Source of the DNA: Escherichia coli
Lineage (GTDB): Bacteria > Pseudomonadota > Gammaproteobacteria > Enterobacterales > Enterobacteriaceae
Direction: 5' to 3' (one strand)
DNA length: 64,000 nt
NCBI RefSeq assembly: GCF_046105845.1
Contig: NZ_CP151004.1
Below, one piece after another: positions 14,123 to 46,731 of this stretch. A model generated the notes under the pieces. That model saw only the letters and a list, made by a program, of their open reading frames with translations, made no database searches and had not been told where the DNA came from. The first letter of the stretch is position 1, and every line of letters begins with the position of its first letter. The translations under genes were made by a program, and so were the position numbers.

Positions 14123-14336
14123 AGCAGTACCTCCTTCACAGTGGCGAGCTTCCTGTATAACGCAAAAATGTGACGGAGATCTATATTTTTTGTGTATGTT
14201 TTGTTCAGCTCAATTAAGTGGGCATCTCCCATCAACGTCGCATCTGACAAAACATACAGCCAAAAAAAATCACCCATTCAGGTGATTCCCAGCCACCAGC
14301 AATGCGCGAAAAATCGACAATGTTCCTCTGGAACAA

Positions 14337-22410: not shown

Positions 22411-22614
22411 GTCATTATGCCCATAAATAAACGAGCCTGTACTCTGTTAACCAGCGTATTTATCGGAGAATAATTGCCTTTAATTTTTTTTCTGCATCTC
22501 TAATTAATTATCGAAAGAGATAAATAGTTAAGAGAAGGCAAAATGAATATTATCAGTTCTGCTCGCAAACGAATTCCCGTACACTGAACTCTCTGGCTCA
22601 CTGAGGGCACCATC

Positions 22615-22887
22615 ATGGCACTCCCCCGTATTACCCAAAAAGAGATGACTGAACGCGAGCAGCGTGAACTTAAAACACTGCTGGATCGGGCGCGGATTGC
22701 GCATGGTCGCGTACTGACCAACTCCGAAACCAACAGCATTAAGAAAGAGTACATCGATAAATTAATGGTCGAGCGTGAGGCTAAAGCGAAAAAAGCCCGC
22801 CAGTTAAAGAAAAAGCAGGCTTATAAACCGGATCCTGAAGCGTCATTTAGCTGGTCAGCAAATACGTCGACGCGCGGCAGGCGCTAA
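22615..22887 (+). CDS. yjbD: Small basic protein of unknown function
   Basis: 90-aa ORF MALPRITQKEMTEREQRELKTLLDRA...; position between lysC and rluF. Confidence 0.75.
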   Translation: MALPRITQKEMTEREQRELKTLLDRARIAHGRVLTNSETNSIKKEYIDKLMVEREAKAKKARQLKKKQAYKPDPEASFSWSANTSTRGRR

Positions 22888-22936
22888 TGAACAATCAACG
22901 CCTGAGATTTTCACTCGTCTGTGTGGACACAATCTT

Positions 22937-22974
22937 CCCCTCACCCTAACCCTCTCCCCGAAGGGGCGAGGGGA
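22937..22974. repeat. GC-rich palindromic intergenic element (Box C-like)
   Basis: cccctcaccctaaccctctccccgaaggggcgagggga; family name from memory. Confidence 0.4.
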
Positions 22975-23019
22975 CTGTCCGAGCACTTTTTGGACGTTTT
23001 CATCAGTCTGAGGCGTTAA

Positions 23020-23892
23020 TCAGCGTCCCTTCTTTTTACGCCCCGGCGAGGTAAAACGCTTACCGTTGGACGCCGGGCGACCGCCTTTTTCCGCCGTTTT
23101 TTCCATCTTAACGACTGGACGTTTGATGCCCGCCGTTTTCGGTTTGGTCTTCGTTTTAGGTTTTGCCTCGGAAGAGGAATTTTCGATGAGCTTAAAGAGG
23201 TCGATTAACTCATCGTCGGTTAAATCGCGCCACTCACCCAGCGGAATGCCGCTTAAACTGACGTTCATAATGCGCGTACGCTCCAGCTTTTTCACTTCGT
23301 AACCAAAGTGCTCGCACATGCGACGGATCTGACGGTTCAGTCCCTGCACCAGGGTAATGCGGAAGACAAACGGCGCTTCTTTTTTGACTTTGCACTTTTT
23401 CGTCACCGTCCCGAGGATCGGCACCCCCGCCCCCATACCACGAATAAATTCATCGGTAATCGGTTTATCGACCGTCACCAGATACTCTTTCTCATGATCG
23501 TTACCCGCACGGAGGATCTTATTCACCAGATCGCCGTGATTGGTGAGGAAAATCAGCCCCTGGGAGTCTTTATCCAGGCGGCCAATCGGGAACACGCGTT
23601 TGCTGTGGTTAACGAAATCGACAATGTTATCGCGCTCGCCATCTTCGGTGGTGCTGACAATACCGACGGGCTTGTTCAGGGCGATAAGTACCAAATCTTC
23701 GGCTTCCCGAGGCTCAATCAACTGACCGTTTACTTTCACAACGTCGCCGGGTTTCACCTGATCGCCAATGGTGGCTCGCTTGCCATTAAGGAACACATTG
23801 CCTTGCTCGATATAGCGATCCGCTTCGCGGCGTGAGCAAATTCCGCTTTCGCTGATGTATTTATTTAAACGGACTGATGAGTCGGGCAGCAT
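23020..23892 (-). CDS. rluF: 23S rRNA pseudouridine synthase F
   Basis: 290-aa ORF; S4 domain then RluA-type catalytic core ([10 protein letters not shown]); Lys/Arg-rich C-tail. Confidence 0.9.
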
Positions 23893-24239
23893 AAATTCTC
23901 CTGTAAAACGCGGAATATACCGTACCTCTTAGCGGGGAAAAACAGGGTTATGCGGCAACGTCGAAATTAAATGTGATCTGCCACGCCTTTTATCACAAAA
24001 GTGTCTCCGGAAGTACGATGCAAATTTGCCTGGCAAAATAAGGATAATCAACATATTACGAATCGCTGCACACCTGTGCTGATGACTACTACGCAGAGAA
24101 ACAAATGTGCAAGAGAAAGCGCTATTTCTCCCCATGCAAAGAGTGAAAAATCGCTTTGAAAGGCCATCATGATGGGGTTATATCAGATCAAGCGGTGAGA
24201 AAGCGTATTTGCACAAATGTGCAGAACCAGGAGGCGGCA

Positions 24240-25187
24240 ATGGAAAACAGTGACGATATCCGTTTGATTGTGAAGATTGCCCAACTCTATTACGAACAGG
24301 ATATGACGCAGGCGCAAATCGCGCGCGAACTGGGTATTTACCGCACCACCATCAGCCGCTTGCTTAAACGAGGCCGCGATCAGGGAATTGTCACCATCGC
24401 CATCAACTATGACTACAACGAAAATCTCTGGCTGGAGCAGCAACTGAAGCAAAAGTTTGGCCTGAAAGACGTTGTGGTGGTGTCGGGAAATGATGAGGAT
24501 GAAGAGACTCAACTGGCGATGATGGGGTTACACGGCGCGCAACTGCTGGATCGCTTGCTGGAGCCTGGCGATATTGTCGGTTTTTCCTGGGGTCGCGCGG
24601 TGAGCGCACTGGTTGAAAACTTGCCGCAGGCGGGGCAATCGCGGCAGTTAATCTGCGTACCAATTATTGGCGGACCGTCCGGTAAACTCGAAAGCCGCTA
24701 TCATGTAAACACATTAACCTACAGCGCGGCAGCGAAGTTGAAAGGAGAATCGCATCTCGCGGATTTTCCGGCTCTACTGGATAACCCCTTAATTCGTAAT
24801 GGGATCATGCAGTCTCAGCACTTTAAAACCATCTCTGCCTACTGGGATAATCTGGATGTCGCCCTGGTGGGAATTGGCTCACCGGCCATTCGTGACGGCG
24901 CTAACTGGCATGCGTTTTATGGTGGTGAAGAGAGTGACGACCTGAATGCCCGCCAGGTTGCTGGCGATATTTGCTCGCGCTTTTTTGATATTCACGGCGC
25001 AATGATTGAAACGAATATGAGTGAAAAAACACTCTCTATCGAAATGAATAAATTAAAGCAGGCACGATATTCCATTGGCATTGCCATGAGTGAAGAAAAA
25101 TACAGCGGAATTATTGGTGCACTGCGTGGAAAATATATTAATTGTCTGGTAACGAATAGCAGCACAGCTGAACTATTACTGAAATAA
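24240..25187 (+). CDS. sorC: SorC/DeoR-family transcriptional regulator of the sorbose operon
   Basis: Start at MENSDDIRLIVKIAQLYY with AGGAGG Shine-Dalgarno (315 aa); N-terminal HTH (MTQAQIARELGIYRTTISRLL) and sugar-binding C-domain. Confidence 0.8.
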   Translation: MENSDDIRLIVKIAQLYYEQDMTQAQIARELGIYRTTISRLLKRGRDQGIVTIAINYDYNENLWLEQQLKQKFGLKDVVVVSGNDEDEETQLAMMGLHGAQLLDRLLEPGDIVGFSWGRAVSALVENLPQAGQSRQLICVPIIGGPSGKLESRYHVNTLTYSAAAKLKGESHLADFPALLDNPLIRNGIMQSQHFKTISAYWDNLDVALVGIGSPAIRDGANWHAFYGGEESDDLNARQVAGDICSRFFDIHGAMIETNMSEKTLSIEMNKLKQARYSIGIAMSEEKYSGIIGALRGKYINCLVTNSSTAELLLK

Positions 25188-25256
25188 AAATCTTCCCGAT
25201 GTTTACCGTAATAAAAATTACGGCGGGTCCCTATTATCTAAAATCAGGAGTCTGTT

Positions 25257-26063
25257 ATGCAAACGTGGTTAAATTTGCAGGATAAAATCATTATCGTCAC
25301 CGGCGGCGCATCCGGTATTGGTCTGGCGATTGTAGAGGAATTATTAGCACAAGGCGCAAACGTACAGATGGTCGATATTCACGGTGGCGATGGTCAATAT
25401 GAAGGTCATAAAGGCTATCAGTTTTGGCCGACCGATATTTCCAGCGCCAAAGAGGTAAATCATACGGTAGCGGAAATTATCCAGCGTTTTGGTCGCATCG
25501 ACGGTCTGGTCAATAACGCCGGGGTCAATTTCCCGCGTCTGCTGATCGATGAGAAAGCGCCTGCCGGGCAGTATGAACTCAACGAAGCTGCATTCGAAAA
25601 AATGGTCAATATCAACCAGAAAGGCGTTTTTCTGATGTCGCAGGCGGTGGCGCGACAAATGGTCAAACAACATGATGGCGTGATTGTGAATGTTTCCTCA
25701 GAAAGTGGGCTGGAAGGCTCAGAAGGCCAAAGCTGTTACGCCGCGACCAAAGCCGCGCTCAATAGCTTCACGCGCTCCTGGTCGAAAGAGCTGGGTAAGC
25801 ACGGTATCCGTGTGGTCGGTATCGCGCCAGGGATTCTGGAAAAAACAGGACTGCGCACGCCGGAATATGAAGAAGCGCTGGCGTGGACGCGCAATATCAC
25901 CGTCGAGCAGCTGCGTGAAGGCTATACCAAAAATTCCATTCCTATTGGGCGCGCCGGAAGATTAGCAGAAGTGGCTGATTTTGTTTGTTATCTGCTGTCT
26001 GAACGCGCCAGCTATATCACCGGAGTAACCACTAACATTGCAGGCGGCAAAACGCGCGGCTAA
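25257..26063 (+). CDS. sorD: Short-chain dehydrogenase (D-glucitol-6-phosphate dehydrogenase-like)
   Basis: 268-aa SDR with TGGASGIG NAD-binding motif and Y-x3-K (YAATK). Confidence 0.8.
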   Translation: MQTWLNLQDKIIIVTGGASGIGLAIVEELLAQGANVQMVDIHGGDGQYEGHKGYQFWPTDISSAKEVNHTVAEIIQRFGRIDGLVNNAGVNFPRLLIDEKAPAGQYELNEAAFEKMVNINQKGVFLMSQAVARQMVKQHDGVIVNVSSESGLEGSEGQSCYAATKAALNSFTRSWSKELGKHGIRVVGIAPGILEKTGLRTPEYEEALAWTRNITVEQLREGYTKNSIPIGRAGRLAEVADFVCYLLSERASYITGVTTNIAGGKTRG

Positions 26064-26072
26064 GGAGGCTTT

Positions 26073-26480
26073 ATGGTCAATGCCATTTTTTGTGCCCACG
26101 GCAAATTAGCTTGCGCCATGCTGGAATCGGTTCAGATGGTTTACGGCAACGCCAATGTTGAAGCCGTTGAATTTGTACCCGGTGAGAACGCCAATGACAT
26201 TGTGGCAAAGCTGGAAAAGTTAGTGAGCATTCACAATCAAGACGAATGGCTGATTGCCGTGGATTTACAGTGCGGCAGCCCGTGGAATGCGGCAGCGATG
26301 CTTGCGATGCGCAATCCTCGTCTGCGGGTAATCAGCGGCCTTTCTCTGCCGCTGGCGCTCGAACTGGTTGATAACCAGGACAGCATGAATGTTGATGAAC
26401 TGTGTGAACACCTGACGCAAATCGCAAAGCAATCCTGCGTCGTCTGGAGACAGGTGGCAACGGCAGAGGAGGATTTCTGA
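26073..26480 (+). CDS. sorF: PTS mannose-family EIIA component (sorbose)
   Basis: 135 aa; EIIA-Man fold signature with His near the N-terminus (FCAHGKLA). Confidence 0.8.
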   Translation: MVNAIFCAHGKLACAMLESVQMVYGNANVEAVEFVPGENANDIVAKLEKLVSIHNQDEWLIAVDLQCGSPWNAAAMLAMRNPRLRVISGLSLPLALELVDNQDSMNVDELCEHLTQIAKQSCVVWRQVATAEEDF

Positions 26481-26974
26481 TGAACATTACGCTCGCCCGC
26501 ATTGATGACCGCCTGATCCACGGTCAGGTCACTACCGTCTGGTCGAAAGTGGCTAACGCCCAGCGCATTATTATCTGCAATGACGAAGTTTATAACGATG
26601 AAGTTCGCCGGACATTATTGCGTCAGGCTGCGCCACCGGGAATGAAGGTTAACGTGGTCAATATTGAAAAAGCCGTCGCGGTTTATCACAACCCGCAATA
26701 TCAGGACGAAACCGTTTTTTATCTTTTCACTCGCCCACAGGATGCCTTAGCGATGGTTCGCCAGGGGGTAAAAATAGGCACCCTGAATATTGGCGGCATG
26801 GCCTGGCGGCCCGGTAAAAAACAGTTAACCAAAGCGGTTTCATTAGATGATGATGATATTAACGCATTTCATGAGTTAAATAATCTTGGCGTCATACTGG
26901 ATTTACGCGTCGTAGCGTCAGATCCCTCAATCAATATTATCGACAAAATAAACGAACAGTTAATCGCAAATTAA
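26480..26974 (+). CDS. sorB: PTS mannose-family EIIB component (sorbose)
   Basis: 164 aa; RIDDRLIHGQV phospho-His motif; ATG overlaps the sorF stop (TGATG). Confidence 0.8.
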   Translation: MNITLARIDDRLIHGQVTTVWSKVANAQRIIICNDEVYNDEVRRTLLRQAAPPGMKVNVVNIEKAVAVYHNPQYQDETVFYLFTRPQDALAMVRQGVKIGTLNIGGMAWRPGKKQLTKAVSLDDDDINAFHELNNLGVILDLRVVASDPSINIIDKINEQLIAN

Positions 26975-27039
26975 ATAATAGCGCCTGTGTACATATGCTT
27001 TAACAGGCAGGGATGACGACACTTAAAAGGTGACAAATC

Positions 27040-27837
27040 ATGGAAATAAGTACCCTACAAATTATTGCTATATTTCTTTTTTCCTGTATTGCCGGAATGG
27101 GCAGCGTGCTGGATGAATTTCAGACTCATCGCCCGTTAATTGCCTGTACGGTGATTGGTTTAATTCTCGGTGATTTAAAAACCGGAATTATGCTCGGTGG
27201 TACGCTGGAATTGATAGCTCTCGGCTGGATGAACGTCGGCGCGGCGCAATCTCCGGATTCCGCGCTCGCCAGCATTATCTCCGCCATTCTGGTTATCGTT
27301 GGTCAGCAAAGCATCGCCACCGGTATCGCCATCGCGTTGCCTGTGGCTGCTGCAGGCCAGGTACTGACGGTGTTTGCCCGCACCATCACCGTAGTGTTCC
27401 AGCACGCGGCGGATAAAGCAGCGGAAGAGGCGCGGTTTCGCACTCTCGATATTCTGCATGTCTCCGCGCTTGGCGTGCAGGCGCTGCGCGTTGCTATTCC
27501 GGCACTGATTGTCTCGCTGTTCGTCAGCGCCGATATGGTCAGCAATATGTTAAACGCCATTCCCGAATTTGTGACCCGAGGACTACAGATTGCTGGCGGT
27601 TTTATCGTGGTGGTCGGTTACGCCATGGTGCTACGTATGATGGGTGTGAAATATTTGATGCCTTTCTTTTTCCTCGGTTTCCTCGCAGGTGGCTACCTCG
27701 ATCTCAGTCTGCTGGCGTTCGGTGGCGTCGGCGTGATCATGGCCCTGGTCTACATCCAGCTAAATCCACAGTGGCGTAAAGCTGAACCTCAACTCCAGGC
27801 CACCGCCTCCACCGCCCTTGACCAACTTGACGATTAA
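27040..27837 (+). CDS. sorA: PTS mannose-family EIIC component (sorbose)
   Basis: 265-aa polytopic membrane protein in EIIC position. Confidence 0.8.
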   Translation: MEISTLQIIAIFLFSCIAGMGSVLDEFQTHRPLIACTVIGLILGDLKTGIMLGGTLELIALGWMNVGAAQSPDSALASIISAILVIVGQQSIATGIAIALPVAAAGQVLTVFARTITVVFQHAADKAAEEARFRTLDILHVSALGVQALRVAIPALIVSLFVSADMVSNMLNAIPEFVTRGLQIAGGFIVVVGYAMVLRMMGVKYLMPFFFLGFLAGGYLDLSLLAFGGVGVIMALVYIQLNPQWRKAEPQLQATASTALDQLDD

Positions 27838-27847
27838 CGGAGCCATC

Positions 27848-28672
27848 ATGGAACAGAGAAAAATTACACGCAGCGATCTGGTGAGCATGTTTCTGCGCTC
27901 CAACCTGCAACAGGCGTCCTTTAACTTTGAACGTATTCACGGGCTGGGTTTTTGCTACGACATGATCCCCGCCATCAAGCGACTTTACCCAGTAAAAGAG
28001 GATCAGGTTGCGGCACTCAGGCGACACCTGGTGTTCTTCAATACCACGCCAGCCGTATGTGGCCCGGTCATCGGCGTCACTGCCGCCATGGAAGAGGCGC
28101 GGGCCAACGGCGCGGAAATTGATGACGGTACCATTAACGGCATCAAAGTCGGTCTGATGGGACCATTGGCAGGAGTTGGCGATCCACTGGTCTGGGGAAC
28201 GCTGCGCCCGATTACCGCCGCGCTCGGCGCATCTCTGGCACTTTCGGGCAACATTCTCGGCCCGCTGCTGTTTTTCTTTATTTTCAACGCGGTGCGTCTG
28301 GCGATGAAGTGGTATGGCCTACAACTCGGCTTTCGCAAAGGGGTGAATATCGTCAGCGATATGGGCGGGAATGTGCTGCAAAAACTCACCGAAGGCGCGT
28401 CGATTCTCGGACTGTTTGTGATGGGCGTGCTGGTCACCAAATGGACGTCAATCAACGTACCGTTGGTGGTTTCACAAACGCATGCCGCCGATGGCTCCAC
28501 CGTCACCATGACCGTGCAGAACATTCTCGACCAACTTTGCCCTGGTTTGCTGGCGCTCGGTCTGACGCTACTGATGGTTCGTCTGCTCAACAAAAAAATT
28601 AACCCGGTATGGCTGATTTTCGCCCTGTTTGGCTTAGGGATTATCGGCAATGCGCTGGGCTTCCTGTCCTGA
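27848..28672 (+). CDS. sorM: PTS mannose-family EIID component (sorbose)
   Basis: Start at MEQRKITRSDL with GGAG Shine-Dalgarno (274 aa); EIID-like membrane protein. Confidence 0.8.
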   Translation: MEQRKITRSDLVSMFLRSNLQQASFNFERIHGLGFCYDMIPAIKRLYPVKEDQVAALRRHLVFFNTTPAVCGPVIGVTAAMEEARANGAEIDDGTINGIKVGLMGPLAGVGDPLVWGTLRPITAALGASLALSGNILGPLLFFFIFNAVRLAMKWYGLQLGFRKGVNIVSDMGGNVLQKLTEGASILGLFVMGVLVTKWTSINVPLVVSQTHAADGSTVTMTVQNILDQLCPGLLALGLTLLMVRLLNKKINPVWLIFALFGLGIIGNALGFLS

Positions 28673-28723
28673 TTCTTCGCCCCGGCACGACTGCCGGGGC
28701 CATCGCTCAACATGAGGTGGTTT

Positions 28724-29953
28724 ATGAAAACAACAGCTCTGCGTCTTTATGGTAAACGTGATTTACGCCTGGAAACCTTTGATCTTCCTGAAATGCAGGA
28801 GGATGAAATCCTCGCGACGGTGGTCACCGACAGCCTGTGCCTCTCTTCCTGGAAAGAGGCCAATCTGGGTGAAAACCATAAAAAAGTACCCGACGATGTG
28901 GCGACCAACCCCATCATCATCGGCCACGAGTTTTGCGGCGATATTCTGGCCGTGGGTAAAAAGTGGCAGCACAAATTCCAGCCGGGCCAGCGCTATGTGA
29001 TTCAGGCCAACCTGCAATTGCCGGATCGCCCGGATTGCCCCGGCTACTCCTTCCCGTGGGTGGGCGGTGAGGCCACACATGTGGTTATCCCAAATGAGGT
29101 TATGGAACAAGATTGCCTGCTGGCATACGACGGCGAAACCTATTTTGAAGGCTCGCTGGTTGAACCGCTTTCCTGCGTGATTGGCGCGTTCAACGCCAAC
29201 TATCATCTTCAGGAAGGTAGTTATAACCACACGATGGGGATTCGCCCGCAAGGGCGCACGCTGATCCTCGGCGGCACCGGACCAATGGGACTGTTGGCGA
29301 TTGATTATGCGCTGCATGGACCCGTTAACCCGTCGCTGCTCGTCATTACCGATACCGACAACGATAAATTGAGTTATGCGCGCAAGCACTATCCATCAGA
29401 ATCGCAAACACTGATTCATTATCTCAATGCCACTGATGCAGCATTTGATACGTTAATGGCGCTGAGTGGCGGTCACGGCTTCGATGATATTTTCGTCTTT
29501 GTGCCTAATGAAGGACTGGTGACTCTCGCCTCTTCCTTGCTGGCGACAGATGGTTGCCTGAATTTCTTCGCCGGACCGCAGGATAAACATTTCAGCGCGC
29601 CAATTAATTTCTACGATGTGCATTATGCATTTACCCACTACGTGGGCACGTCAGGCGGCAATACCGACGACATGCGCGCAGCGGTCAAATTGATTGAAGA
29701 GAAAAAAGTGCAGGCCGCAAAAGTGGTAACACATATTCTTGGGCTGAATGCCGCGGGCGAAACCACGCTTGAATTGCCTGCCGTCGGCGGCGGCAAAAAG
29801 CTGGTGTATACCGGGAAATACCTGCCGCTTATGTCACTCACGCAGATTCAGGATCAAGCACTGGCGGCAATTCTGGCGCGTCATCAGGGGATCTGGTCCG
29901 GTGAGGCGGAGCAATATCTGCTCACTCATGCAGAGGCAATTTCCCATGATTAA
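28724..29953 (+). CDS. sorE: Zn-dependent medium-chain dehydrogenase (L-sorbose-1-phosphate reductase-like)
   Basis: Start at MKTTALRLYGK with GAGG Shine-Dalgarno; GHEFCGDI zinc-ADH motif and GGTGPMG Rossmann motif. Confidence 0.8.
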   Translation: MKTTALRLYGKRDLRLETFDLPEMQEDEILATVVTDSLCLSSWKEANLGENHKKVPDDVATNPIIIGHEFCGDILAVGKKWQHKFQPGQRYVIQANLQLPDRPDCPGYSFPWVGGEATHVVIPNEVMEQDCLLAYDGETYFEGSLVEPLSCVIGAFNANYHLQEGSYNHTMGIRPQGRTLILGGTGPMGLLAIDYALHGPVNPSLLVITDTDNDKLSYARKHYPSESQTLIHYLNATDAAFDTLMALSGGHGFDDIFVFVPNEGLVTLASSLLATDGCLNFFAGPQDKHFSAPINFYDVHYAFTHYVGTSGGNTDDMRAAVKLIEEKKVQAAKVVTHILGLNAAGETTLELPAVGGGKKLVYTGKYLPLMSLTQIQDQALAAILARHQGIWSGEAEQYLLTHAEAISHD

Positions 29954-30113
29954 TCGCGCTACTTAACTCTGCATGTCGCTGGCTGGTCGCCGCGGCAACT
30001 TCGCGACCTGATGTGCGGCTGATTGCTGAAGCGGCCCAATGTACACGAGAAGGATAAAAAAACATCAGCGCCTTAAGGGGCGCTCAAATTGGTGGCAAAG
30101 TACACATTGTTTA

Positions 30114-30218
30114 TGCCGGATGCGGAATGAAGCCTTATTCGGCATACATAATCTCGAAAATTCAATATATTGCAGTTATCTGGTAGGACTGGTAAGCGTA
30201 GCGCATCAGGCAATGCTG
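30114..30218. repeat. REP/BIME pair at the right edge of the sor block
   Basis: tgccggatgcggaatgaagccttattcggcatac and ggtaagcgtagcgcatcaggcaatgc. Confidence 0.6.
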
Positions 30219-30335
30219 TGTTTGTCATCAGTCTCAGCGCCCGGTGCAATACGTGACATCGTGAGCCATGTCAGTAAGTGGTTAAATTCGCAGTGGTAGC
30301 ATGCCTTCCGTGATTTCTTACTAACCGGAGAAGTA

Positions 30336-31025
30336 ATGGAACTGCTTTTATTGAGTAACTCGACGCTGCCGGGTAAAGCCTGGCTGGAACATGCACTGCC
30401 GCTAATTGCTGAACAGTTGCAGGGTCGCCGCTCAGCGGTGTTTATCCCTTTCGCTGGCGTAACGCAGACCTGGGATGATTACACAGCGAAAACGGCTGCG
30501 GTTCTCGCTCCGCTGGGTGTTTCTGTCACCGGTATTCATAGCGTTGTCGATCCCGTTGCTGCGATTGAAAATGCTGAGATCGTGATTGTCGGCGGCGGTA
30601 ATACTTTCCAGTTGCTGAAACAGTGCCGCGAGCGCGGGCTGCTGGCACCAATTACTGACGTGATTAAACGTGGCGCGCTGTATATTGGCTGGAGCGCTGG
30701 CGCTAACCTTGCTTGCCCAACCATTCGTACCACCAACGATATGCCGATTGTCGATCCGCAAGGTTTCGATGCGCTGAATCTGTTCCCGTTGCAAATCAAC
30801 CCGCACTTCACCAACGCGCTGCCGGAAGGCCATAAAGGTGAAACCCGTGAACAGCGTATTCGCGAACTGCTGGTCGTCGCGCCAGAACTCACAATTATTG
30901 GTCTACCGGAAGGTAACTGGATCACAGTGAGTAAAGGTCACGCAACGCTGGGTGGCCCGAACACCACTTATGTGTTTAAGGCTGGTGAAGAAGCGGTGCC
31001 GCTGGAAGCGGGTCACCGTTTTTAA
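30336..31025 (+). CDS. pepE: Alpha-aspartyl dipeptidase (peptidase E)
   Basis: 229-aa [24 protein letters not shown]...; S51 peptidase with catalytic Ser in GWSAGAN. Confidence 0.9.
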
Positions 31026-31069
31026 ATGAATTGCCGGGGGCAACGCCGCCCGGCATCCCGTGCACGGTA

Positions 31070-32701
31070 TTAATACTCGTCCCGTCCTTCATCTTCATCC
31101 GGCTGTTCCAGCACACTGTAAGCCACCGAACAAAACAGCGAGTTCAGACGCTGCATATCTCCCAGTAAGCCTAAATGTAGCGAACTGGTTTCAATGCTCT
31201 GCACGTTTTGCTGATGCAGGCGATCGACGTGGGCGTGGGAATAGCGGCGATTAAGAATGCGAAAACGATGCTTGCTGCGGCGCAAACGACGGGCGCTGGT
31301 AACATCGCCAGAGAAGAAAACCGACATTGCCAGTTTTAAATTACTGAGCAATTGCTCATAGAGCGCATCCAGTTCCTTCAAGCCATCAAGCGAAAATGCC
31401 CGCCGTGCAGCCAGCGATTTGTCGGCAATTTCACTACCCATGCGCTCGACGATATCGGAGGCCTGTTCAAGGTTTAGCGACATTTCGATGATCTCCGCCC
31501 AGCGGCGCGACTCTTCTTCTGCCAGTTCCTCTTTTGGCATTCGCGCCAGATAAAGTTTAATCGCGGTATAGAGCACGTTGATATCATCCGCCAGCTTGCG
31601 CAGCTCTTTCTCCTGCCGTGGCTCGCCGTGCATCACTTTATTCAACCCTTCCATCATCTGTTCCATGGCGTCGCCAATGCGCAGGGTTTCGCGCGCGGCG
31701 TTCGCCAGAGCAAGCGTGGGCGTATCCAGCGCGCTGACATCCAGATGTTTAGGCCGTAGCTGGGTATCCAGTTCCGGTTCATCGCGAATAATCGTTTTGC
31801 AAAACCGTGCCATCGGGTCAACAAATGGCAGCATGACCAGGCAACGTACAAGGTTGTAGAAGACGTGGAAATAGATCACCAGTTCCGCTTTTGGCAATGA
31901 CAACTTCCCCATTGTCTCTGCCAGCAAATGGACAAACGGCAGGATAATCAGGCTACCCACCAGCTTAAACAGCAGACTACCCAGCGCGACACGGCGGGCT
32001 GCGGCATTGGCGGCACTGTTGTTGAGCATCGCCAGCAGGCCGGAACCGAGGTTAGCACCAATCACCAGACAGAGCGCCACGGGGAAGGAGATAATGCCTG
32101 CAGCGGTCAGAGTCGCGGTCAGCAGTACAGCAGCAAGGCTGGAGTAGCTGATAATGGCGAACATCGCGCCAATCAGCGCATCCAGCAGAATATCGCCGGT
32201 CAGCGAGGCAAAGATCACCTGAACGCCGTTTGCCTGGGTGATCGGCGTTACGGCCTGCACAATCAACTCCAGCGCCAGTAAAATCAGCCCAAGACCAATA
32301 CCGACGCGGCCCAGTTGCCCGGCGCGTGACTGTTTGCGTCCGAGGAAAAAAATCACGCCGATAAAAATAAGTAATGGTGACAGCCAGGATAAGTCGAAGG
32401 TGAGAATACGCGCCATTAGCGCCGTCCCGACATCTGCACCCAGCACAATCACCAGAGCCGGTGCGAGGGCTACCAGATCCTGAGCGACGAACGAGGTCAC
32501 CAGCATGGTGGTGGCATTACTGCTCTGTACCAGTGCGGTAACGCCGATCCCCGCGCAAAAGGCGAGCGGCTTTTTTTCGACGCTCCGGCTAAGGACAGTA
32601 CGCAAACGCGCGCCGAAGACGCGCATTACGCCGGTTCGAACAATATGAGTCCCCCAGACCAGCAGGGCGACGGCAGAAAGCAGGTGAAGCAGCGTTAACA
32701 C
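31070..32701 (-). CDS. yjbB: Na+/phosphate cotransporter-family membrane protein
   Basis: 543-aa ORF; polytopic N-domain plus PhoU-like C-domain; convergent with pepE. Confidence 0.85.
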   Translation of the reverse strand: MLTLLHLLSAVALLVWGTHIVRTGVMRVFGARLRTVLSRSVEKKPLAFCAGIGVTALVQSSNATTMLVTSFVAQDLVALAPALVIVLGADVGTALMARILTFDLSWLSPLLIFIGVIFFLGRKQSRAGQLGRVGIGLGLILLALELIVQAVTPITQANGVQVIFASLTGDILLDALIGAMFAIISYSSLAAVLLTATLTAAGIISFPVALCLVIGANLGSGLLAMLNNSAANAAARRVALGSLLFKLVGSLIILPFVHLLAETMGKLSLPKAELVIYFHVFYNLVRCLVMLPFVDPMARFCKTIIRDEPELDTQLRPKHLDVSALDTPTLALANAARETLRIGDAMEQMMEGLNKVMHGEPRQEKELRKLADDINVLYTAIKLYLARMPKEELAEEESRRWAEIIEMSLNLEQASDIVERMGSEIADKSLAARRAFSLDGLKELDALYEQLLSNLKLAMSVFFSGDVTSARRLRRSKHRFRILNRRYSHAHVDRLHQQNVQSIETSSLHLGLLGDMQRLNSLFCSVAYSVLEQPDEDEGRDEY

Positions 32702-32920
32702 GAGTTCAGGTTCTCCTTATCGTTATATGTTCCTGAAGCAATTGAATGACCAAAGGACCGGAAACACGCTGACTGGCATCTTTACTGTGCCTTTTGACCT
32801 TCGTTTTTCCGGCTAAGATTATTCCAGCCTGATTCCAGTATAAGTGTTTCATATTAATAAAGAGACAGGGCACTCATTGAGCGCCCTGTTTGTTGTAAGG
32901 AAAAGTGACAGATTTGTGAA

Positions 32921-35900
32921 TCAGTCCGCGTCATACCCCAGATTCGGTGCCAGCCAGCGCTCAACATCTGAGACGCTCATACCTTTACGGCGGGCATAGT
33001 CTTCAACCTGATCGCGCTGGATTTGCGCCACCGCGTAATACTTGCTGTCCGGGTGGCTGAAGTACCAACCCGAAACCGATGCACCAGGCCACATGGCGAA
33101 AGATTCTGTGAGTTTCATGCCAGTGTGTTTTTCCACTTCCAGCAGCTCCCAGATGTTGGCTTTTTCCGTATGTTCCGGGCAGGCCGGGTAGCCCGGTGCC
33201 GGACGGATGCCCTGGTAGTTTTCGCGGATCAGTTCTTCGTTGCTGAGGTTCTCGTTCGGCGCATAGCCCCAGTAGACTTTACGCACACGCTCATGGAGAT
33301 ACTCCGCAAAGGCTTCGGCTAAACGATCAGCAAGGGCTTTCACCATGATTTTGTTGTAATCATCGTGCTGCGCTTCAAAGGCATCAGCCAGTGCGTCCTC
33401 TTCCAGCCCGCCAGTCACGGCAAATGCGCCGATGTAATCTGCTTTACCAGAAAGCTTCGGCGCAACGAAGTCAGCGAGACAGTAGTTAGCGAATCCCGTT
33501 TTTTCGGTCTGTTGACGCAGATGGTGGCTGACGTTGATCACATGGGTGCGCGTTTCGTCACGGTAGATTTCAATGTCATCGCCCACACGGTTTGCCGGGA
33601 ACAGCCCCACCACGCCACGCGGATTCAGCGTTTTTTCGGCGCTTAATTTATCCAGCATGTCATTGGCGTCTTTAAACAGACGCTGCGCCTCAACGCCCAC
33701 CACTTCATCTTCCAGAATGCGCGGATACTTCCCGGCCAGCGACCAGGTCATAAAGAACGGTGTCCAGTCGATGTAATTACGCAGCGTTTCGATGCTGGCT
33801 TCGACTTCCTGCACGCCGAGACGGTGCGCCACCGGCGGCGTGTAAGCCTGCCAGTCAAAAGCGAAATCGTTATCGCGCGCCGCTTCCAGCGTGACCGGTG
33901 GTGTGCGTGGTTTCTTGCGCCCGTGCTGAATACGCACGGTTTCGTACTCCTTGCGGGTACGAGCGACAAAATCATCACGCTGAGTATCGGAAAGCAGCGC
34001 CGCCACCACACCAACGGTGCGCGATGCGTTCTGTACATACACCGTCGGGCCGCTGTAGTTCTGCTCAATTTTCACCGCCGTGTGCGCTTTTGAGGTGGTC
34101 GCGCCGCCAATCAGTAACGGAATGGTGAAGCCCTGACGCTCCATCTCTTTCGCCACGTTAACCATCTCGTCCAGCGACGGCGTGATAAGCCCCGAAAGTC
34201 CAATCAGATCAGCATTCACTTCTTTAGCGGTACGGAGAATTTTTTCCGCAGGCACCATCACGCCGAGATCAACAATTTCGTAGTTGTTACATTGCAGCAC
34301 CACGCCAACGATATTTTTACCGATATCGTGGACGTCGCCCTTCACTGTAGCGATCACCATCTTGCCGTTGGTTTTGCCCTGCTCTTTGCTGGCTTCAATA
34401 AACGGTTCGAGATACGCCACCGCCTGTTTCATGACGCGCGCCGATTTCACCACCTGCGGCAGGAACATTTTGCCTTCGCCAAACAGATCGCCGACCACGT
34501 TCATACCGTCCATCAACGGGCCTTCAATCACTTCAATCGGGCGCGTAGCCTGCTGGCGTGCTTCTTCGGTATCCTGCTCGATAAACTCGGTAATGCCTTT
34601 GACCAGCGAGTATTCCAGACGTTTATTCACTTCCCACGAGCGCCACTCCGCCTGCTGGGCGTTAGCGGTGTCGTCGGTTTTGCTGCCGCGATATTTCTCG
34701 GCAAGCTCCAGTAAACGCTCAGTGCCATCGTCGCGACGGTTAAGAATCACATCTTCCACCGCGTCGCGCAGTTCAGCGGGTAGGTCGTCGTAAATCGCCA
34801 GTTGCCCGGCGTTGACGATCCCCATATCCATGCCATTGCGAATAGCGTAGTAGAGGAACACCGCGTGAATGGCTTCGCGCACCGGATCGTTACCACGGAA
34901 TGAGAAAGAAACGTTAGATACGCCGCCGGAGATCAGCGCGTGCGGCAGCTCACGTTTGATGTCTTCACACGCGCCAATAAAGTCCTGCGCATAGTTGTTG
35001 TGCTCTTCAATGCCGGTGGCGACCGCGAAGATGTTCGGGTCGAAGATGATATCTTCTGGCGGGAAGCCAACCTCTTCGGTGAGGATTTTGTACGCCCGAC
35101 GGCAAATCTCGATTTTCCGTGCGCGGGTATCGGCCTGCCCCTGTTCGTCAAAGGCCATTACCACCACTGCCGCACCGTAACGACGCAACAATTTCGCGTG
35201 ATGGATAAAAGCGTCGACGCCTTCTTTCATCGAAATAGAGTTAACAATGCCTTTGCCCTGGATACACTTCAGACCTTTTTCAATGACATCCCATTTTGAG
35301 GAGTCGATCATAATCGGCACGCGAGCGATATCCGGTTCACCGGCAATCAGATTGAGAAAACGCACCATCGCCGCTTCGGCATCGAGCATCCCTTCATCCA
35401 TGTTGATATCGATAATCTGCGCGCCGTTTTCCACCTGCTGGCGGGCCACATCCAGTGCCTCGCTGTATTTCTCTTCTTTGATCAGGCGCTTGAACTTAGC
35501 GGAACCGGTGACGTTGGTGCGTTCACCCACGTTCACAAACAGGCTATCTTCGCCAATGTTCAGCGGCTCCAGGCCGGACAAACGGCAGGCTACGGGGATT
35601 TCCGGCAGTTTGCGCGGCGCTAATCCTTCTACTGCACGACTCATCGCGGCAATATGTTGTGGCGTGGTGCCACAGCAGCCGCCGACGATATTGAGAAAGC
35701 CCGCTTGCGCCCATTCACGTATCTGTTTTGCCATCGTGTCGGCGTCGAGATCGTACTCACCAAAGGCGTTGGGTAGCCCGGCGTTCGGGTGCGCTGTGAC
35801 GTAGCATTCCGCAATCCGTGATAATTCCTGCACGTACTGGCGCAGTTCGTCTGGCCCCAGCGCACAGTTAAGGCCGAAAGTCAGCGCTTCGGCGTGGCGC

Positions 35901-36604
35901 AGAGAGTTATAAAACGCTTCGGTGGTCTGCCCGGAGAGCGTGCGCCCGGAGGCGTCGGTGATGGTGCCGGAGATCATAATCGGCAGCTCAACGCCCAGCG
36001 CTTCAAACTCCGTTTTCACCGCAAAGACCGCCGCTTTGGCGTTAAGGGTGTCGAAAACGGTTTCAATCAGGATCAGATCCGCACCACCTTCCACCAGCGC
36101 TTTGGTGGATTCGCGATAGGCCGCCACCAGCTGGTCAAAAGTGATGTTGCGGAATGCCGGATCGTTTACGTCCGGAGAAATAGACGCCGTGCGGTTGGTC
36201 GGGCCGAGAACACCGGCAACGTAGCGCGGTTTCTCCGGCGTGCGCGCGGTCCACTCATCAGCACAGGCGCGCGCCAGTTTCGCCGCCGCAAAGTTGATTT
36301 CCGCCGACAGGGATTCCATCTGGTAATCCGCCATCGCAATGGTTGTGGAGTTGAAGGTGTTGGTTTCGATGATATCCGCGCCCGCTTCAAAGTAGGCGTT
36401 GTGGATAGCGGCGATCACTTCCGGTTTACTGAGTACCAGCAGGTCGTTGTTGCCTTTGAGGTCGCATGGCCAGTTGGCAAAGCGTTCACCACGAAAATCG
36501 GCTTCGTTCAGTCGATAGCTCTGGATCATGGTGCCCATACCGCCGTCCAGCACCAGAATACGTTCATTTAACTGCGCACGCAGTTGTTCCACTTTGCTGC
36601 TCAC
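32921..36604 (-). CDS. metH: Cobalamin-dependent methionine synthase
   Basis: 1227 aa from a probable GTG start (V)[24 protein letters not shown]; B12-binding DxHxxG motif (GDVHDIGKN). Confidence 0.95.
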
Positions 36605-36761
36605 ACTTGCTCCCGACACGCTCAACCCAGATTTAATAAAAATTCAACAAACCATACTGGCATAAACGCATCTGTGGTAAAAGCGACCACCACGCAACAT
36701 GAGATTTGTTCAACATTAACTCATCGGATCAGTTCAGCAACTATTGCATTAGCTAACAATA

Positions 36762-36790
36762 AAAATGAAAATGATTTCCACGATACAGAA
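36762..36790. promoter_or_regulatory. Putative IclR autoregulatory operator
   Basis: aaaatgaaaatgatttccacg resembles the IclR box half-site TGGAAAT-ATTTCCA just upstream of iclR. Confidence 0.4.
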
Positions 36791-36803
36791 AAAGGAGACT
36801 GTC

Positions 36804-37628
36804 ATGGTCGCACCCATTCCCGCGAAACGCGGCAGAAAACCCGCCGTTGCCACCGCACCAGCGACTGGACAGGTTCAGTCTTTAACGCGTGGCCTGAAAT
36901 TACTGGAGTGGATTGCCGAATCCAATGGCAGTGTGGCACTCACGGAGCTGGCGCAACAAGCCGGGTTACCCAATTCCACGACCCACCGCCTGCTAACCAC
37001 GATGCAACAGCAGGGTTTCGTGCGTCAGGTTGGCGAACTGGGACACTGGGCAATCGGCGCACATGCCTTTATGGTCGGCAGCAGCTTTCTCCAGAGCCGT
37101 AATTTGTTAGCAATTGTTCACCCTATCCTGCGCAATCTAATGGAAGAGTCTGGCGAAACGGTCAATATGGCGGTGCTTGATCAAAGCGATCATGAAGCGA
37201 TTATTATCGACCAGGTACAGTGTACCCACCTGATGCGAATGTCCGCGCCTATCGGCGGTAAATTACCGATGCACGCTTCCGGTGCGGGTAAAGCCTTTTT
37301 AGCCCAACTGAGCGAAGAACAGGTGACGAAGCTGCTGCACCGCAAAGGGTTACATGCCTATACCCACGCAACGCTGGTGTCTCCTGTGCATTTAAAAGAA
37401 GATCTCGCCCAAACGCGCAAACGGGGTTATTCATTTGACGATGAGGAACATGCGCTGGGGCTACGTTGCCTTGCAGCGTGTATTTTCGATGAGCACCGTG
37501 AACCGTTTGCCGCAATTTCTATTTCCGGACCGATTTCACGTATTACCGATGACCGTGTGACCGAGTTTGGCGCGATGGTGATTAAAGCGGCGAAGGAAGT
37601 GACGCTGGCGTACGGTGGAATGCGCTGA
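36804..37628 (+). CDS. iclR: Glyoxylate-shunt repressor IclR
   Basis: Start at MVAPIPAKRGRKPAVATAP (274 aa) with AAGGAG Shine-Dalgarno. Confidence 0.9.
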   Translation: MVAPIPAKRGRKPAVATAPATGQVQSLTRGLKLLEWIAESNGSVALTELAQQAGLPNSTTHRLLTTMQQQGFVRQVGELGHWAIGAHAFMVGSSFLQSRNLLAIVHPILRNLMEESGETVNMAVLDQSDHEAIIIDQVQCTHLMRMSAPIGGKLPMHASGAGKAFLAQLSEEQVTKLLHRKGLHAYTHATLVSPVHLKEDLAQTRKRGYSFDDEEHALGLRCLAACIFDEHREPFAAISISGPISRITDDRVTEFGAMVIKAAKEVTLAYGGMR

Positions 37629-37944
37629 CTTTTTCTGGCGGGCAGAGGCAATATTCTGCCCATCATACCTGAGTGGCAATAGAATAAGGGTGTCTGTTAA
37701 TCGCATTGACGCCAAAATAACTTAATGTCATACACTTCACACACTTTTATTAACTCAGTATTATTTTTAAACATCAAACCACTTAATTATTAACAAAATC
37801 GCAAGATCTCATTCCACCGAAACTTTTACGGCTGCATTATGAGATTGAGCGATTTATGATATTTCTTTAGTTGTAATCATATTAAATTTTTTCACTGTTC
37901 TGATAGTTAAAATTCAAGACATCAATAAACAATGAGATATTTAA

Positions 37945-41845
<3,901 letters not shown>

Positions 41846-41884
41846 TTAATTCGCCCCTCGCCTTACGGAAAGGGGCGTTGGTTG

Positions 41885-43189
41885 TTAGAACTGCGATTCT
41901 TCGGTGGAGCCGGTCAGCGCGGTGACTGAAGACGTACCGCCCTGAATAATGGTCGTCACTTTATCGAAATAACCTGTACCCACTTCCTGCTGGTGAGAAA
42001 CGAAGGTGTAACCATCTTTCGCGGCGGCGAATTCCGGTTGCTGCACTTTCTCAACATAGTGCTTCATACCTTCGCCCTGGGCATAGGCGTTTGCCAGGTC
42101 GAACATGTTGAACCACATGCTGTGGATGCCTGCCAGGGTGATGAACTGGAACTTGTAGCCCATATCCGACAGCTGCTGCTGGAAGCTGGCAATAGTTTTG
42201 TCGTCGAGGTTTTTCTGCCAGTTGAACGACGGCGAGCAGTTATAAGCCAGCAGTTTGCCCGGATATTTCGCGTGGATGGCTTGTGCAAAGCGACGCGCCA
42301 GTTCCAGGTCTGGCGTGGAGGTTTCACACCATACCAGGTCAGCATATGGCGCATACGCCAGGCCACGGCTGATCGCTTGCTCAATGCCCGCATGAGTACG
42401 GAAGAAGCCTTCGCTGGTACGCTCGCCGGTAATAAATTCGCTGTCATACGGGTCGCAATCGGAGGTAATCAGATCCGCCGCATCGGCATCGGTTCGAGCA
42501 ACCAGCAGGGTTGGAACGCCCGTCACGTCAGCTGCCAGACGCGCCGCGACCAGTTTCTGAATAGCTTCCTGAGTTGGCACCAGCACTTTGCCGCCCATGT
42601 GACCACATTTCTTCACTGATGCCAGCTGATCTTCGAAGTGAACTGCCGCTGCACCGGCTTCAATCATCGCTTTCATCAGTTCAAAGGCATTCAGGACACC
42701 GCCAAAACCGGCTTCCGCATCAGCAACGATCGGCAGGAAGTAATCGACATAGCGCGGATCGCCCGGCTCAATGCCCGCGGACCATTGGATCTGATCCGCA
42801 CGGCGGAAGGTATTGTTGATCCGCTCCACCACCGCTGGCACCGAGTTTGCCGGATAGAGCGACTGATCCGGATACATGCTGGCCGCCAGGTTAGCGTCCG
42901 CCGCTACCTGCCATCCCGACAGATAGACTGCTTCAATACCCGCTTTCGCCTGTTGCAGCGCCTGACCGCCAGTCAGTGCACCGAGGCTGTTGATGTAGCC
43001 TTTTTTCGACTCGCCGTGCAGCAGACGCCACATTTTCGCCGCGCCCAGTTGCGCCAGCGTGCATTCAGGATTGACTGAACCGCGTAATTTCACCACATCT
43101 TCCGCGCTGTATGGGCGAGTAATGCCTTCCCAACGCGGTTGAGTCCACTCTTTCTGTAATTCTTCAATTTGTTGTGTACGGGTTTTCAT
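41885..43189 (-). CDS. aceA: Isocitrate lyase
   Basis: Start at [15 protein letters not shown] (434 aa); catalytic KKCGH motif. Confidence 0.95.
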
Positions 43190-43218
43190 GTGCAGATGCT
43201 CCATAGTTATGTGGTGGT

Positions 43219-44820: not shown

Positions 44821-44910
44821 CGTGCAGCTCCTCGTCATGGATCCGAAAACTTCCCCACTGTGAACGAAGGATCGTTGTGCGCTTTTCGTTCAGCACAACT
44901 AAGACTACTC

Positions 44911-44944
44911 ATTTAAAATGCAAAATCAAAAACAATTTCCATTT
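44911..44944. promoter_or_regulatory. IclR operator in the aceBAK promoter region
   Basis: atttaaaatgcaaaatcaaaaacaatttccattt matches the remembered IclR box. Confidence 0.5.
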
Positions 44945-45088
44945 TAATTAAAAATACTTGGTAACTTATTGATAACAATATGAATAAAATTTATTCACCT
45001 GCTGAGGTGCGTTTCGGAAATAAAAAAGGCACCCGAAGGTGCCTGAGGTAAGGTGCTGAATCGCTTAACGATCGACTATCACAGAAGA

Positions 45089-46725: not shown

Positions 46726-46731
46726 AATTTG

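Follow-up and report, generated by a model that had tools for sequence, protein, structure and literature searches.

The sor locus and its genes

The interval between the start codons of rluF and pepE, which corresponds exactly to positions 23893-30335 of the 64,000-nucleotide stretch of Escherichia coli DNA analysed here (hereafter the window), contains seven intact, co-directional open reading frames on the plus strand, each preceded by a Shine-Dalgarno sequence. As detailed in Table 1, the ORF list and family scans give these genes the order and content of sorCDFBAME, confirming the match with the classical sor operon proposed in the original prediction. The rluF gene lies immediately upstream and pepE, yjbB, metH and iclR are found downstream, placing the block at a site in the metH-iclR region. 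In K-12 MG1655 only 211 bp separate rluF and pepE, in agreement with an earlier claim that the two are adjacent there, and alignment of the window to this K-12 interval has shown that the seven genes are absent from K-12 at that position. The alignment runs to position 23927 on the rluF side and homology picks up again on the pepE side at about 30246-30255. The block between these points, with junctions read directly from the sequence, is the sole gap of more than 300 bp detected by megablast against K-12, so that its description as the only accessory block in the window has held. Start codons follow the RefSeq annotation of the KE55 locus (98.9% identical), as three of the starts originally listed (TTG 24156, TTG 27818 and ATG 28712) make the frames too long.

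Table 1. Positions of genes and sequence features at the rluF-pepE locus of the window.
Feature	Position	Strand	Description
rluF	23020-23892	-	Left core flank; 23S rRNA pseudouridine 2604 synthase; NCBIfam NF007784, E = 4.8e-183, full length
Segment without K-12 counterpart	23928-30254	+	Replaced by an 86-bp filler in K-12-type genomes
Site A	23993-24004		Candidate SorC operator; palindrome tCACAAAAGTGt; CACAAAAGTG (23994-24003) conserved in at least 90%
Site B	24068-24079		Candidate SorC operator; palindrome GCAC-ACCT-GTGC; GCACA...GTGC conserved in at least 90%
Site C	24099-24112		CAAATGTGCAA; half-degenerate copy of the site D motif; conserved in at least 90%
Candidate sor promoter	24156-24190	+	TTGAAA, 17-nt spacer, TATATC; inside GGGTTATATCAGATCA, conserved in at least 90%
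Site D	24210-24223		Candidate SorC operator; perfect palindrome TGCACA-AA-TGTGCA; ATTTGCACAAATGTGCA conserved in at least 90%
sorC	24240-25187	+	SorC-family transcriptional regulator (SorC/DeoR-type), 315 aa; PF04198 (6.6e-80) plus N-terminal HTH domain
sorD	25257-26063	+	SDR D-glucitol (sorbitol)-6-phosphate dehydrogenase, 268 aa; NF004817, Pfam adh_short
sorF	26073-26480	+	Mannose-family PTS EIIA, 135 aa; TIGR00824, E = 3.8e-44; PF03610
sorB	26480-26974	+	PTS EIIB, 164 aa; TIGR00854; PF03830
sorA	27040-27837	+	PTS EIIC, 265 aa; TIGR00822, E = 2.4e-127; PF03609
sorM	27848-28672	+	PTS EIID, 274 aa; TIGR00828, E = 6.3e-142; PF03613
sorE	28724-29953	+	L-sorbose-1-phosphate reductase, medium-chain zinc-type dehydrogenase, 409 aa; ADH_N, ADH_zinc_N
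sdhL relic	29946-30057	+	Deletion relic (pseudogene) of a shikimate-dehydrogenase-like eighth gene; alignment to intact orthologues
Hairpin	30067-30084		GC-rich, AGCGCC-TTAAGG-GGCGCT; directly 3' of the sdhL relic; terminator scan
BIME	30115-30211		Two inverted, slightly degenerate REP elements (30115-30147 and 30183-30211)
pepE	30336-31025	+	Right core flank; dipeptidase E; NF003642, E = 7.3e-107

The family matches of the seven genes are far beyond chance. SorC shares 273 of its 315 residues (86.7%) with Klebsiella pneumoniae SorC over its full length (PDB 2W48) and is 100% identical to the KE55 protein (WP_001308198.1). SorD scores 499.7 bits against NF004817 (cut-off 304, E = 1.9e-150) and displays TGGASGIG and YAATK motifs. 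The four PTS components, encoded by sorF, sorB, sorA and sorM, belong to the mannose family (NCBIfam E-values from 3.8e-44 to 6.3e-142), and all four TIGR models score above their cut-offs, indicating split IIA, IIB, IIC and IID polypeptides. An N-terminal His9 lies within an FCAHGK motif in SorF, while sorB, whose start overlaps the stop codon of sorF, encodes a DDRLIHGQV phospho-histidine loop; its product is identical to K. pneumoniae IIB-Sor (PDB 1NRZ) at 139 of 160 residues (86.9%). The protein-level match to Klebsiella Sor proteins that had been anticipated was therefore observed for both SorC and SorB. SorE is 100% identical to KE55 WP_000858557.1, which carries the RefSeq name 'sorE: L-sorbose 1-phosphate reductase', retains residues C39, H68 and E69, and shows 84-86% identity to its orthologues in Klebsiella species other than K. 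pneumoniae. The activities predicted for SorD and SorE fit those expected of a sor operon.

Upstream control region

Conservation upstream of sorC was measured on 32 aligned regions from different species, with a threshold of at least 90% of sequences. The GCAC-N4-GTGC palindromes found in this region (sites A, B and D, together with half-site C) are candidate SorC operators. The core of site A is conserved amid otherwise diverged sequence, and site D, which adjoins the sorC ribosome-binding site on its upstream side, is conserved from Escherichia to Pantoea and Erwinia. Hexamers read from the sequence (TTGAAA and TATATC) point to a weak promoter at about 24156-24184. A strict sigma-70 consensus scan found no promoter upstream of sorC, due to a C at position 6 of the -10 hexamer, and the assignment is therefore tentative. 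A weak -10 element would fit an activator-dependent promoter.

Sequences downstream of sorE

The interval also contains an sdhL relic and a BIME, both missed by the original prediction. The relic keeps ~19 codons from the 5' end of the gene, the seventh of which is a TAA (29964-29966). An internal deletion of ~701 bp (junction between 30003 and 30004) separates them from the 3' remnant, 16 codons plus the stop codon (30055-30057). Of a full-length SdhL of about 270 aa, only these two ends remain. Among 35 species, sdhL is present after sorE in 29, with intact orthologues of 269-270 aa in Escherichia whittamii and Klebsiella michiganensis. The intact protein matches NF009202 (E = 5e-137) and HI0607 (PDB 1NPY, E = 4.9e-104), and the orthologues at two of the retrieved loci (L003 and L015) are full-length proteins of ~270 aa of this HI0607 type.

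The hairpin that follows has an RNA fold of -13 kcal/mol (z = -2.2). Whether it terminates the operon is uncertain, as the T-run is on the minus strand and, on the plus strand, an A-run comes before the hairpin. The BIME, detected by regular-expression matches in the window, matches canonical REP copies in the orthologous E. whittamii region, and a REP stretch from that region has dozens of matching places per E. coli genome. An 86-aa ORF (30039-30299) that spans the BIME and lacks a family match was judged spurious.

Distribution and origin of the sor block

The rluF-pepE locus has two alleles in complete E. coli genomes. In a survey of 5,426 such genomes, the sor block was present in 2,865, while an alternative allele consisting of one nearly invariant 86-bp filler was present in 2,557. 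No match to this K-12-type filler was found in any sor-positive locus, and it is left unexplained by a scenario of sor loss. According to the literature, sor occurs in more than 86% of genomes per phylogroup, with the exception of A (9.6%) and B1 (12.1%). Among complete RefSeq E. coli genomes, identity to the window is never above 98.9%, whether for the block or for its flanks, and the host lineage is therefore rarely sampled.

The block had been described as strain-variable cargo. Its variability is borne out by these counts; the term cargo fares less well when other genera are considered. Two Enterococcus species and some 35 species representatives of Enterobacterales share this order of the sor genes. 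In 27 species representatives rluF is directly 5' of sorC, with pepE and yjbB downstream in most. The rluF-sor-pepE arrangement, in some cases with sdhL before pepE, recurs in Citrobacter, Klebsiella, Raoultella, Enterobacter and other Escherichia species, including E. whittamii. Sequence divergence of the block follows that of its flanks in comparisons with E. whittamii (93.0% identity vs 91-95% for the flanks), Klebsiella (79-84% vs 80-84%) and Citrobacter (80-83% vs 79-87%), and its GC content (51.0%) resembles that of the rest of the window (51.5%). A search of the block for an integrase, an IS element, a tRNA and flanking direct or terminal repeats found none, and all seven genes were metabolic or regulatory in the family scan. 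Taken together, the synteny across genera, the flank-like divergence and the lack of mobile-element marks make ancestral presence followed by loss the likelier history, and suggest that the block is ancestral at this site in Enterobacteriaceae, with a loss in K-12 rather than a gain here. The loss was most likely a single event in the K-12-type lineage, affecting mainly phylogroups A and B1, since one nearly invariant empty haplotype and an absence concentrated in these two phylogroups fit such an event.

The opposite history, in which sor is a horizontally acquired islet inserted into an ancestrally empty, K-12-like rluF-pepE site, draws on the block being confined to 53% of complete E. coli genomes and on an empty site made of 86 bp of unique sequence with no clean deletion scar. 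In Pseudocitrobacter, moreover, rluF and sor are anomalously close to Escherichia (89-90% identity vs 80-86% for the right flank), an excess similarity which indicates some horizontal exchange and shows that recombination can carry the region from one genus to another. Set against the recurrent arrangement, parallel divergence and unremarkable composition described above, this history is unlikely, and the block was probably not gained as mobile cargo.

Predicted function in L-sorbose catabolism

Two reports (PMC13410766; PMC12817954) summarise what has been established about the sor pathway in Klebsiella and E. coli (Sprenger and Lengeler, 1984; Wöhrl et al., 1990). By analogy, a phosphoryl group from PEP would pass through EI and HPr to SorF (EIIA) and then SorB (EIIB), while the SorA/SorM (EIIC/EIID) membrane complex would take up L-sorbose and release it as L-sorbose-1-phosphate. 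SorE would reduce this product to D-glucitol-6-phosphate, which SorD would oxidise to D-fructose-6-phosphate for entry into glycolysis. SorC, encoded by the first gene, is expected to act as a repressor without sorbose and as an activator in its presence.

Experimental data are available for operons with 97-98% identity to that of the window. In Biolog arrays L-sorbose is used by EAEC 042, where the operon adjoins rluF, but not by MG1655 (PMC2808357). In ST131 sorbose induces no genes more strongly than the seven sor genes, and deletion of sorE abolishes growth on L-sorbose, while an ST10 strain with a sor knock-in grows slowly on this sugar (PMC12817954). We infer from its sequence that the operon is probably active in this particular strain as well.

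An operon that is cryptic or non-functional here, or a PTS serving mainly another substrate such as fructose or mannose, would be compatible with several observations. The substrate of mannose-family EII complexes is hard to assign by sequence, the NCBIfam matches being to generic 'mannose/fructose/sorbose' models, and deletion of sorAM in ST131 did not prevent growth on sorbose, which other PTS systems supported (PMC12817954). Decay has also occurred in related Escherichia, with sorE split in E. albertii and partial or no matches for sorE and sorD at one locus each (L044 and L006, respectively), and the neighbouring sdhL is already a relic in the window. Such a reading is nonetheless highly improbable, given that the seven frames are full length and match, at 99-100% identity, those of strains whose operon is sorbose-induced and required for growth on this sugar, that a dedicated SorE and SorD are sensible only for a sorbose-1-phosphate route, and that nearly all differences from KE55 are synonymous (identity of 98.9% in DNA and 99-100% in protein), which indicates purifying selection. 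The interval is thus best read, with a probability of about 0.93, as an intact chromosomal sorCDFBAME operon at its usual rluF-pepE site, most likely ancestral there and lost in the K-12-type lineage.

Comparison with known systems

The manXYZ and agaVWEF/agaBCD operons of E. coli share the four-domain EIIA/B/C/D architecture and the phospho-histidine relay with the sor PTS, but include no SorC regulator and no SorE or SorD enzyme. The sor PTS also falls well below the cut-offs of the Man and Aga equivalog models (AgaF 73.6 vs 130; ManX 210.8 vs 400).

A closer resemblance is found with K. pneumoniae sorCDFBAME, which does not differ in gene content or order (Sprenger and Lengeler, 1984; Wöhrl et al., 1990). 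As the 80 loci retrieved for comparison did not include this species, the direct comparison with it covered SorC and SorB. In other Klebsiella species the rluF and pepE flanks are the same and identity is 76-96% per Sor protein. SorF (EIIA) is the most diverged component (74-79%). In the Klebsiella species examined, unlike the window, sdhL is intact and overlaps the end of sorE, and pepE is preceded by extra genes, such as a toxin-antitoxin-like pair in K. michiganensis.

The description of the locus as a known system rather than a new one has been borne out (PMC2808357; PMC12817954; PMC13410766), as the operon is well known and near-identical E. coli operons have been tested in EAEC 042, ST131 and ST648. 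These operons, together with those of CFT073 and KE55, match the window in all seven genes (Ec042-4384-4390 in EAEC 042), in their order and in their chromosomal site by rluF, at 96.8-98.9% DNA identity. EAEC 042 is 97.8% identical over an 8.1-kb query. ST648 and about 177 complete genomes differ from the window in that sdhL is intact, while KE55, at the upper end of this range, shares with it both the sdhL deletion relic and the downstream BIME.

Gene content of the sor locus

The exact interval between the start codons of rluF and pepE (23893-30335) contains seven plus-strand reading frames, whose families, assigned with NCBIfam and Pfam far beyond chance, are those expected of the L-sorbose phosphotransferase operon sorCDFBAME, so that the gene order and content put forward in the original prediction are confirmed. 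The mechanical list of open reading frames had over-long starts for three of the seven sor genes, and the starts used are those of the RefSeq annotation of E. coli KE55, the closest complete genome. A Shine-Dalgarno sequence has been detected upstream of all seven genes, with sorB overlapping the stop codon of sorF. The signature residues read from the sequences include His9 in EIIA, the DDRLIHGQV loop in EIIB, the SDR motifs TGGASGIG and YAATK, and C39, H68 and E69 in SorE. The genes of the block are all metabolic or regulatory, comprising one regulator, two dehydrogenases and four PTS components.

Table. Features of the rluF-pepE region and its flanking genes in the window
Feature	Position	Strand	Description
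rluF	23020-23892	minus	left flank of the sor block
CACAAAAGTG	23994-24003		conserved island (32 species); only CAC-N4-GTG conserved of GCAC-N4-GTGC
GCAAATTTGC	24020-24029		partly conserved only (GCAA.T)
GCAC-ACCT-GTGC	24068-24079		conserved island (32 species)
CAAATGTGCAA	24102-24112		conserved island (32 species)
GGGTTATATCAGATCA	24175-24190		conserved island (32 species)
TGCACAAATGTGCA	24210-24223		conserved island; perfect palindrome just upstream of the sorC ribosome-binding site
sorC	24240-25187	plus	SorC/DeoR-type regulator, HTH and PF04198 (NCBIfam, Pfam)
sorD	25257-26063	plus	SDR sorbitol-6-phosphate dehydrogenase, NF004817 (499.7 bits, cut-off 304)
sorF	26073-26480	plus	mannose-family EIIA (NCBIfam, Pfam)
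sorB	26480-26974	plus	mannose-family EIIB (NCBIfam, Pfam)
sorA	27040-27837	plus	mannose-family EIIC (NCBIfam, Pfam)
sorM	27848-28672	plus	mannose-family EIID (NCBIfam, Pfam)
sorE	28724-29953	plus	medium-chain zinc-type dehydrogenase (NCBIfam, Pfam)
sdhL relic	29946-30057		about 19 N-terminal codons, TAA at codon 7; last 16 codons and stop
GC-rich hairpin	30067-30084		after the sdhL relic, -13 kcal/mol
BIME	30115-30211		two inverted, slightly degenerate REP elements
pepE	30336-31025		right flank of the sor block

Two alleles at the rluF-pepE site

The original prediction had placed rluF and pepE next to each other in K-12, and in MG1655 the two genes are indeed 211 bp apart, with none of the seven genes between them. 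Homology between the window and K-12 stops at 23927 and restarts at about 30246-30255, the two points being separated in K-12 by an unrelated 86-bp filler. Megablast comparison of the whole window with K-12 has shown a collinear alignment at 96.6-98.9% identity, in which 23928-30254 is the sole gap of more than 300 bp (others being 30-284 bp), with no further accessory block above that size; the description of the sor operon as the only clear accessory block is thus borne out. Among the shorter differences, 284 bp in the zraP-zraS region (57371-57654) lie in place of about 305 bp of K-12 sequence and a 142-bp insertion (61096-61237) lies between the hemE and nfi counterparts, both without a megablast match to K-12, and smaller gaps occur at 14208-14264, 41837-41876 and 46614-46724.

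Of 5,426 complete RefSeq E. coli genomes, 2,865 contain 80% or more of the sor block, chromosomal in every case, which agrees with the predicted strain variability. The K-12-type junction has been found in another 2,557, with an identity of 99% or more in 2,542 of those, and the two arrangements together account for 5,422 of the genomes. The polymorphism at this site is cleanly biallelic, with only one empty haplotype. The filler (2429-2514 of the K-12 locus) is single-copy in E. coli genomes and nearly invariant in the 2,557, and a blastn-short search with it returned no match in the window or in any sor-positive locus examined. In a 2025 survey, sor was present in more than 86% of genomes per phylogroup, with the exception of A (9.6%) and B1 (12.1%) (PMC12817954). 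The operon serves as a strain marker, indicating that the window derives neither from K-12 nor from a strain typical of phylogroup A or B1, and as a predictor of a sorbose-positive phenotype.

The highest identity to the window among complete RefSeq E. coli genomes is 98.9% (tested at 23000-31100 and 31100-50000), and its exact MetH protein occurs on only 6 contigs. An artificial or mutated sequence has been rejected as the cause of this ceiling, considering that the differences are almost all synonymous and that two public read-set assemblies from Logan (ERR4034258 and SRR28309099) contain 6.7-7.7 kb of the metH region at 100% identity. The window comes from a rarely sampled Escherichia coli-like lineage.

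Probable ancestral presence and loss

The block had been described as strain-variable cargo. Its variability stands, but the acquisition which the word implies is the less likely history, and presence in the ancestor followed by one loss in K-12-type lineages agrees better with the evidence. Upstream of sorC, rluF is the immediate neighbour in 27 species representatives, most of which have pepE and yjbB on the downstream side; among them are E. whittamii, two other Escherichia species clusters, Pseudocitrobacter, Citrobacter, Klebsiella, Raoultella and Enterobacter. Nucleotide identity to the window is 93.0% for the sor block and 91-95% for the flanking core genes in E. whittamii, 79-84% and 80-84% in Klebsiella, and 80-83% and 79-87% in Citrobacter. 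The block has a GC content of 51.0%, against 51.5% for the remaining window, and it shows no tRNA, integrase, IS element, direct or inverted terminal repeats or GC deviation. Synteny, the matching divergence of block and flanks, composition and lack of mobility marks, and phylogroup distribution together favour loss over gain, and the simplest reading is that sor was ancestral at rluF-pepE and that a single event eliminated it from the lineage that gave rise to most A and B1 strains, K-12 included.

Two observations do not fit neatly with loss, namely the filler with no detectable source and the unusual closeness of the Pseudocitrobacter rluF-sor segment to that of Escherichia. In three Pseudocitrobacter loci, rluF and sor (window 23011-30003) are 89-90% identical to the window, whereas pepE, yjbB and metH (window 30327-37628) reach only 80-86%; in the other genera, block and flanks are equally diverged. 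As the left segment is much closer to Escherichia than the right flank, some inter-genus recombination is suggested, and there are hints that it spanned rluF and sor in Pseudocitrobacter.

The manner in which E. coli acquired sor has been stated as unresolved (PMC13410766). The cross-genus synteny of the operon suggests that the question should be reversed: sor looks ancestral, and the event needing explanation is a single loss in which an 86-bp filler was substituted.

Irregular sor loci also occur elsewhere in the genus. In the E. albertii type strain, the sorE alignment is split in two, with a small indel, and the contig terminates within sorA; in Escherichia sp. MOD1-EC7003 the sorE match is restricted to the C-terminal part, and strain SCPM-O-B-8794 lacks a full-length sorD match. 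These patterns suggest that sor is decaying in further lineages of Escherichia.

A candidate eighth gene

A shikimate-dehydrogenase-like gene encoding 269-270 aa, sdhL, directly follows sorE in 29 of 35 species loci, beginning 4-8 nt ahead of the sorE stop (intact copies at 11223-12035 of the E. whittamii locus and 11217-12026 of the Klebsiella michiganensis locus). The intact protein is of the HI0607 type (NF009202, E = 5e-137; PDB 1NPY, E = 4.9e-104). The window retains a relic with an internal deletion of about 701 bp (junction 30003|30004), identical in KE55, and among the 5,426 complete E. coli genomes no more than 177 still have the full gene. Most E. coli, including the window, lost sdhL through one shared 701-bp deletion, which has left a relic of the gene in most of the sor-positive ones. 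In the literature, sdhL has been noted beside sor only for ST648, where it is sorbose-induced (PMC12817954). It is put forward, as a tentative and rather doubtful proposal, that sdhL truly belonged to the ancestral enterobacterial sor operon as its eighth gene and functions in sorbose-related metabolism. By analogy with the Gluconobacter 5-ketofructose reductase (PDB 7COK), a distant relative matching at family level only (E = 7e-16), SdhL might act on a sorbose-related ketose, for instance by converting 5-keto-D-fructose to L-sorbose. The association with sor is a modest clue to the function of an orphan class of enzymes.

Candidate regulatory and spacer elements

The 260 bp upstream of sorC were aligned across 32 species, and islands conserved in at least 90% of the sequences stand out against otherwise diverged sequence, three of them having in common the form GCAC-N4-GTGC. 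SorC is reportedly a tetramer in the crystal (2W48). Repressors of the SorC family bind tandem operators as tetramers (PMC11229326). Taking into account the shared form, the tetrameric SorC and this mode of binding, the conserved GCAC-N4-GTGC palindromes may be regarded as candidate SorC operators; no experimental definition of a SorC operator was found in the literature searched. A strict sigma-70 scan called no promoter upstream of sorC and gave fewer sites than shuffled sequence did (3 against 6.9), and the proposal of TTGAAA-17 nt-TATATC (24156-24184) as a candidate weak, activator-dependent promoter therefore comes from conservation only.

Downstream of sorE, a terminator scan detected no canonical terminator on the plus strand; the T-run of the single good hairpin is on the minus strand, yet no gene on that strand is directed into it. 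Intact sdhL in E. whittamii is followed by the same hairpin. No RNA family was found at E ≤ 1 in a permissive Rfam scan of 22500-31500, and an 86-aa ORF at 30039-30299 was rejected as a gene, having no family match and spanning the REP elements. The spacer between sdhL and pepE is variable, extending over 0.8 to 8 kb in Citrobacter and K. spallanzanii, and in K. michiganensis (12058-12668 of its locus) it contains two small minus-strand ORFs (105 and 97 aa), the stop codon of one overlapping the start codon of the other, which look like a toxin-antitoxin pair.

Function and comparison with known sor systems

Under the established scheme summarised in PMC13410766 and PMC12817954, phosphoryl groups from PEP would be relayed by EI and HPr to SorF and on to SorB, with L-sorbose imported by SorA/SorM and arriving as L-sorbose-1-phosphate. 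SorE would reduce this to D-glucitol-6-phosphate and SorD would oxidise the latter to fructose-6-phosphate, SorC acting as both repressor and activator of the operon (PMC13410766; PMC12817954). In ST131, sorE deletion abolishes sorbose growth, knock-in of sor into an ST10 strain results in slow growth on sorbose, and the most strongly sorbose-induced genes are those of sor (PMC12817954). Recent papers, PMC13410766 among them, have connected possession of sor with the fitness and virulence of high-risk clones. Judging from the intact frames and the almost wholly synonymous substitutions, the operon is probably active in the window's strain.

Work on the sor operon goes back to the 1980s, and which E. 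coli carry it and which lack it is well catalogued. The anticipated match to Klebsiella Sor proteins was found, with identities to K. pneumoniae of 273/315 (86.7%) over the full length for the crystallised SorC (PDB 2W48) and 139/160 (86.9%) for IIB-Sor, the counterpart of SorB (PDB 1NRZ). Because K. pneumoniae is absent from the 80 loci kept, SorD, SorF, SorA, SorM and SorE were compared through other Klebsiella species. A scan of one genome per species has revealed the sorCDFBAME order in about 35 Enterobacterales loci, with 74-99% identity per protein and values as low as 60% in the exceptional Entomohabitans, and two Enterococcus species retain the order at 28-73%. The KE55 locus, whose last sor gene is named "sorE: L-sorbose 1-phosphate reductase" by RefSeq, shares 98.9% DNA and 99-100% protein identity with the block, and the operon of EAEC 042, a strain which uses sorbose whereas MG1655 does not, is 97.8% identical. 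The sor operon of the window is an already known system, as originally judged, with near-identical operons characterised in EAEC 042 and ST131; the analysis adds to it the relic of sdhL, the BIME and the candidate SorC operators.
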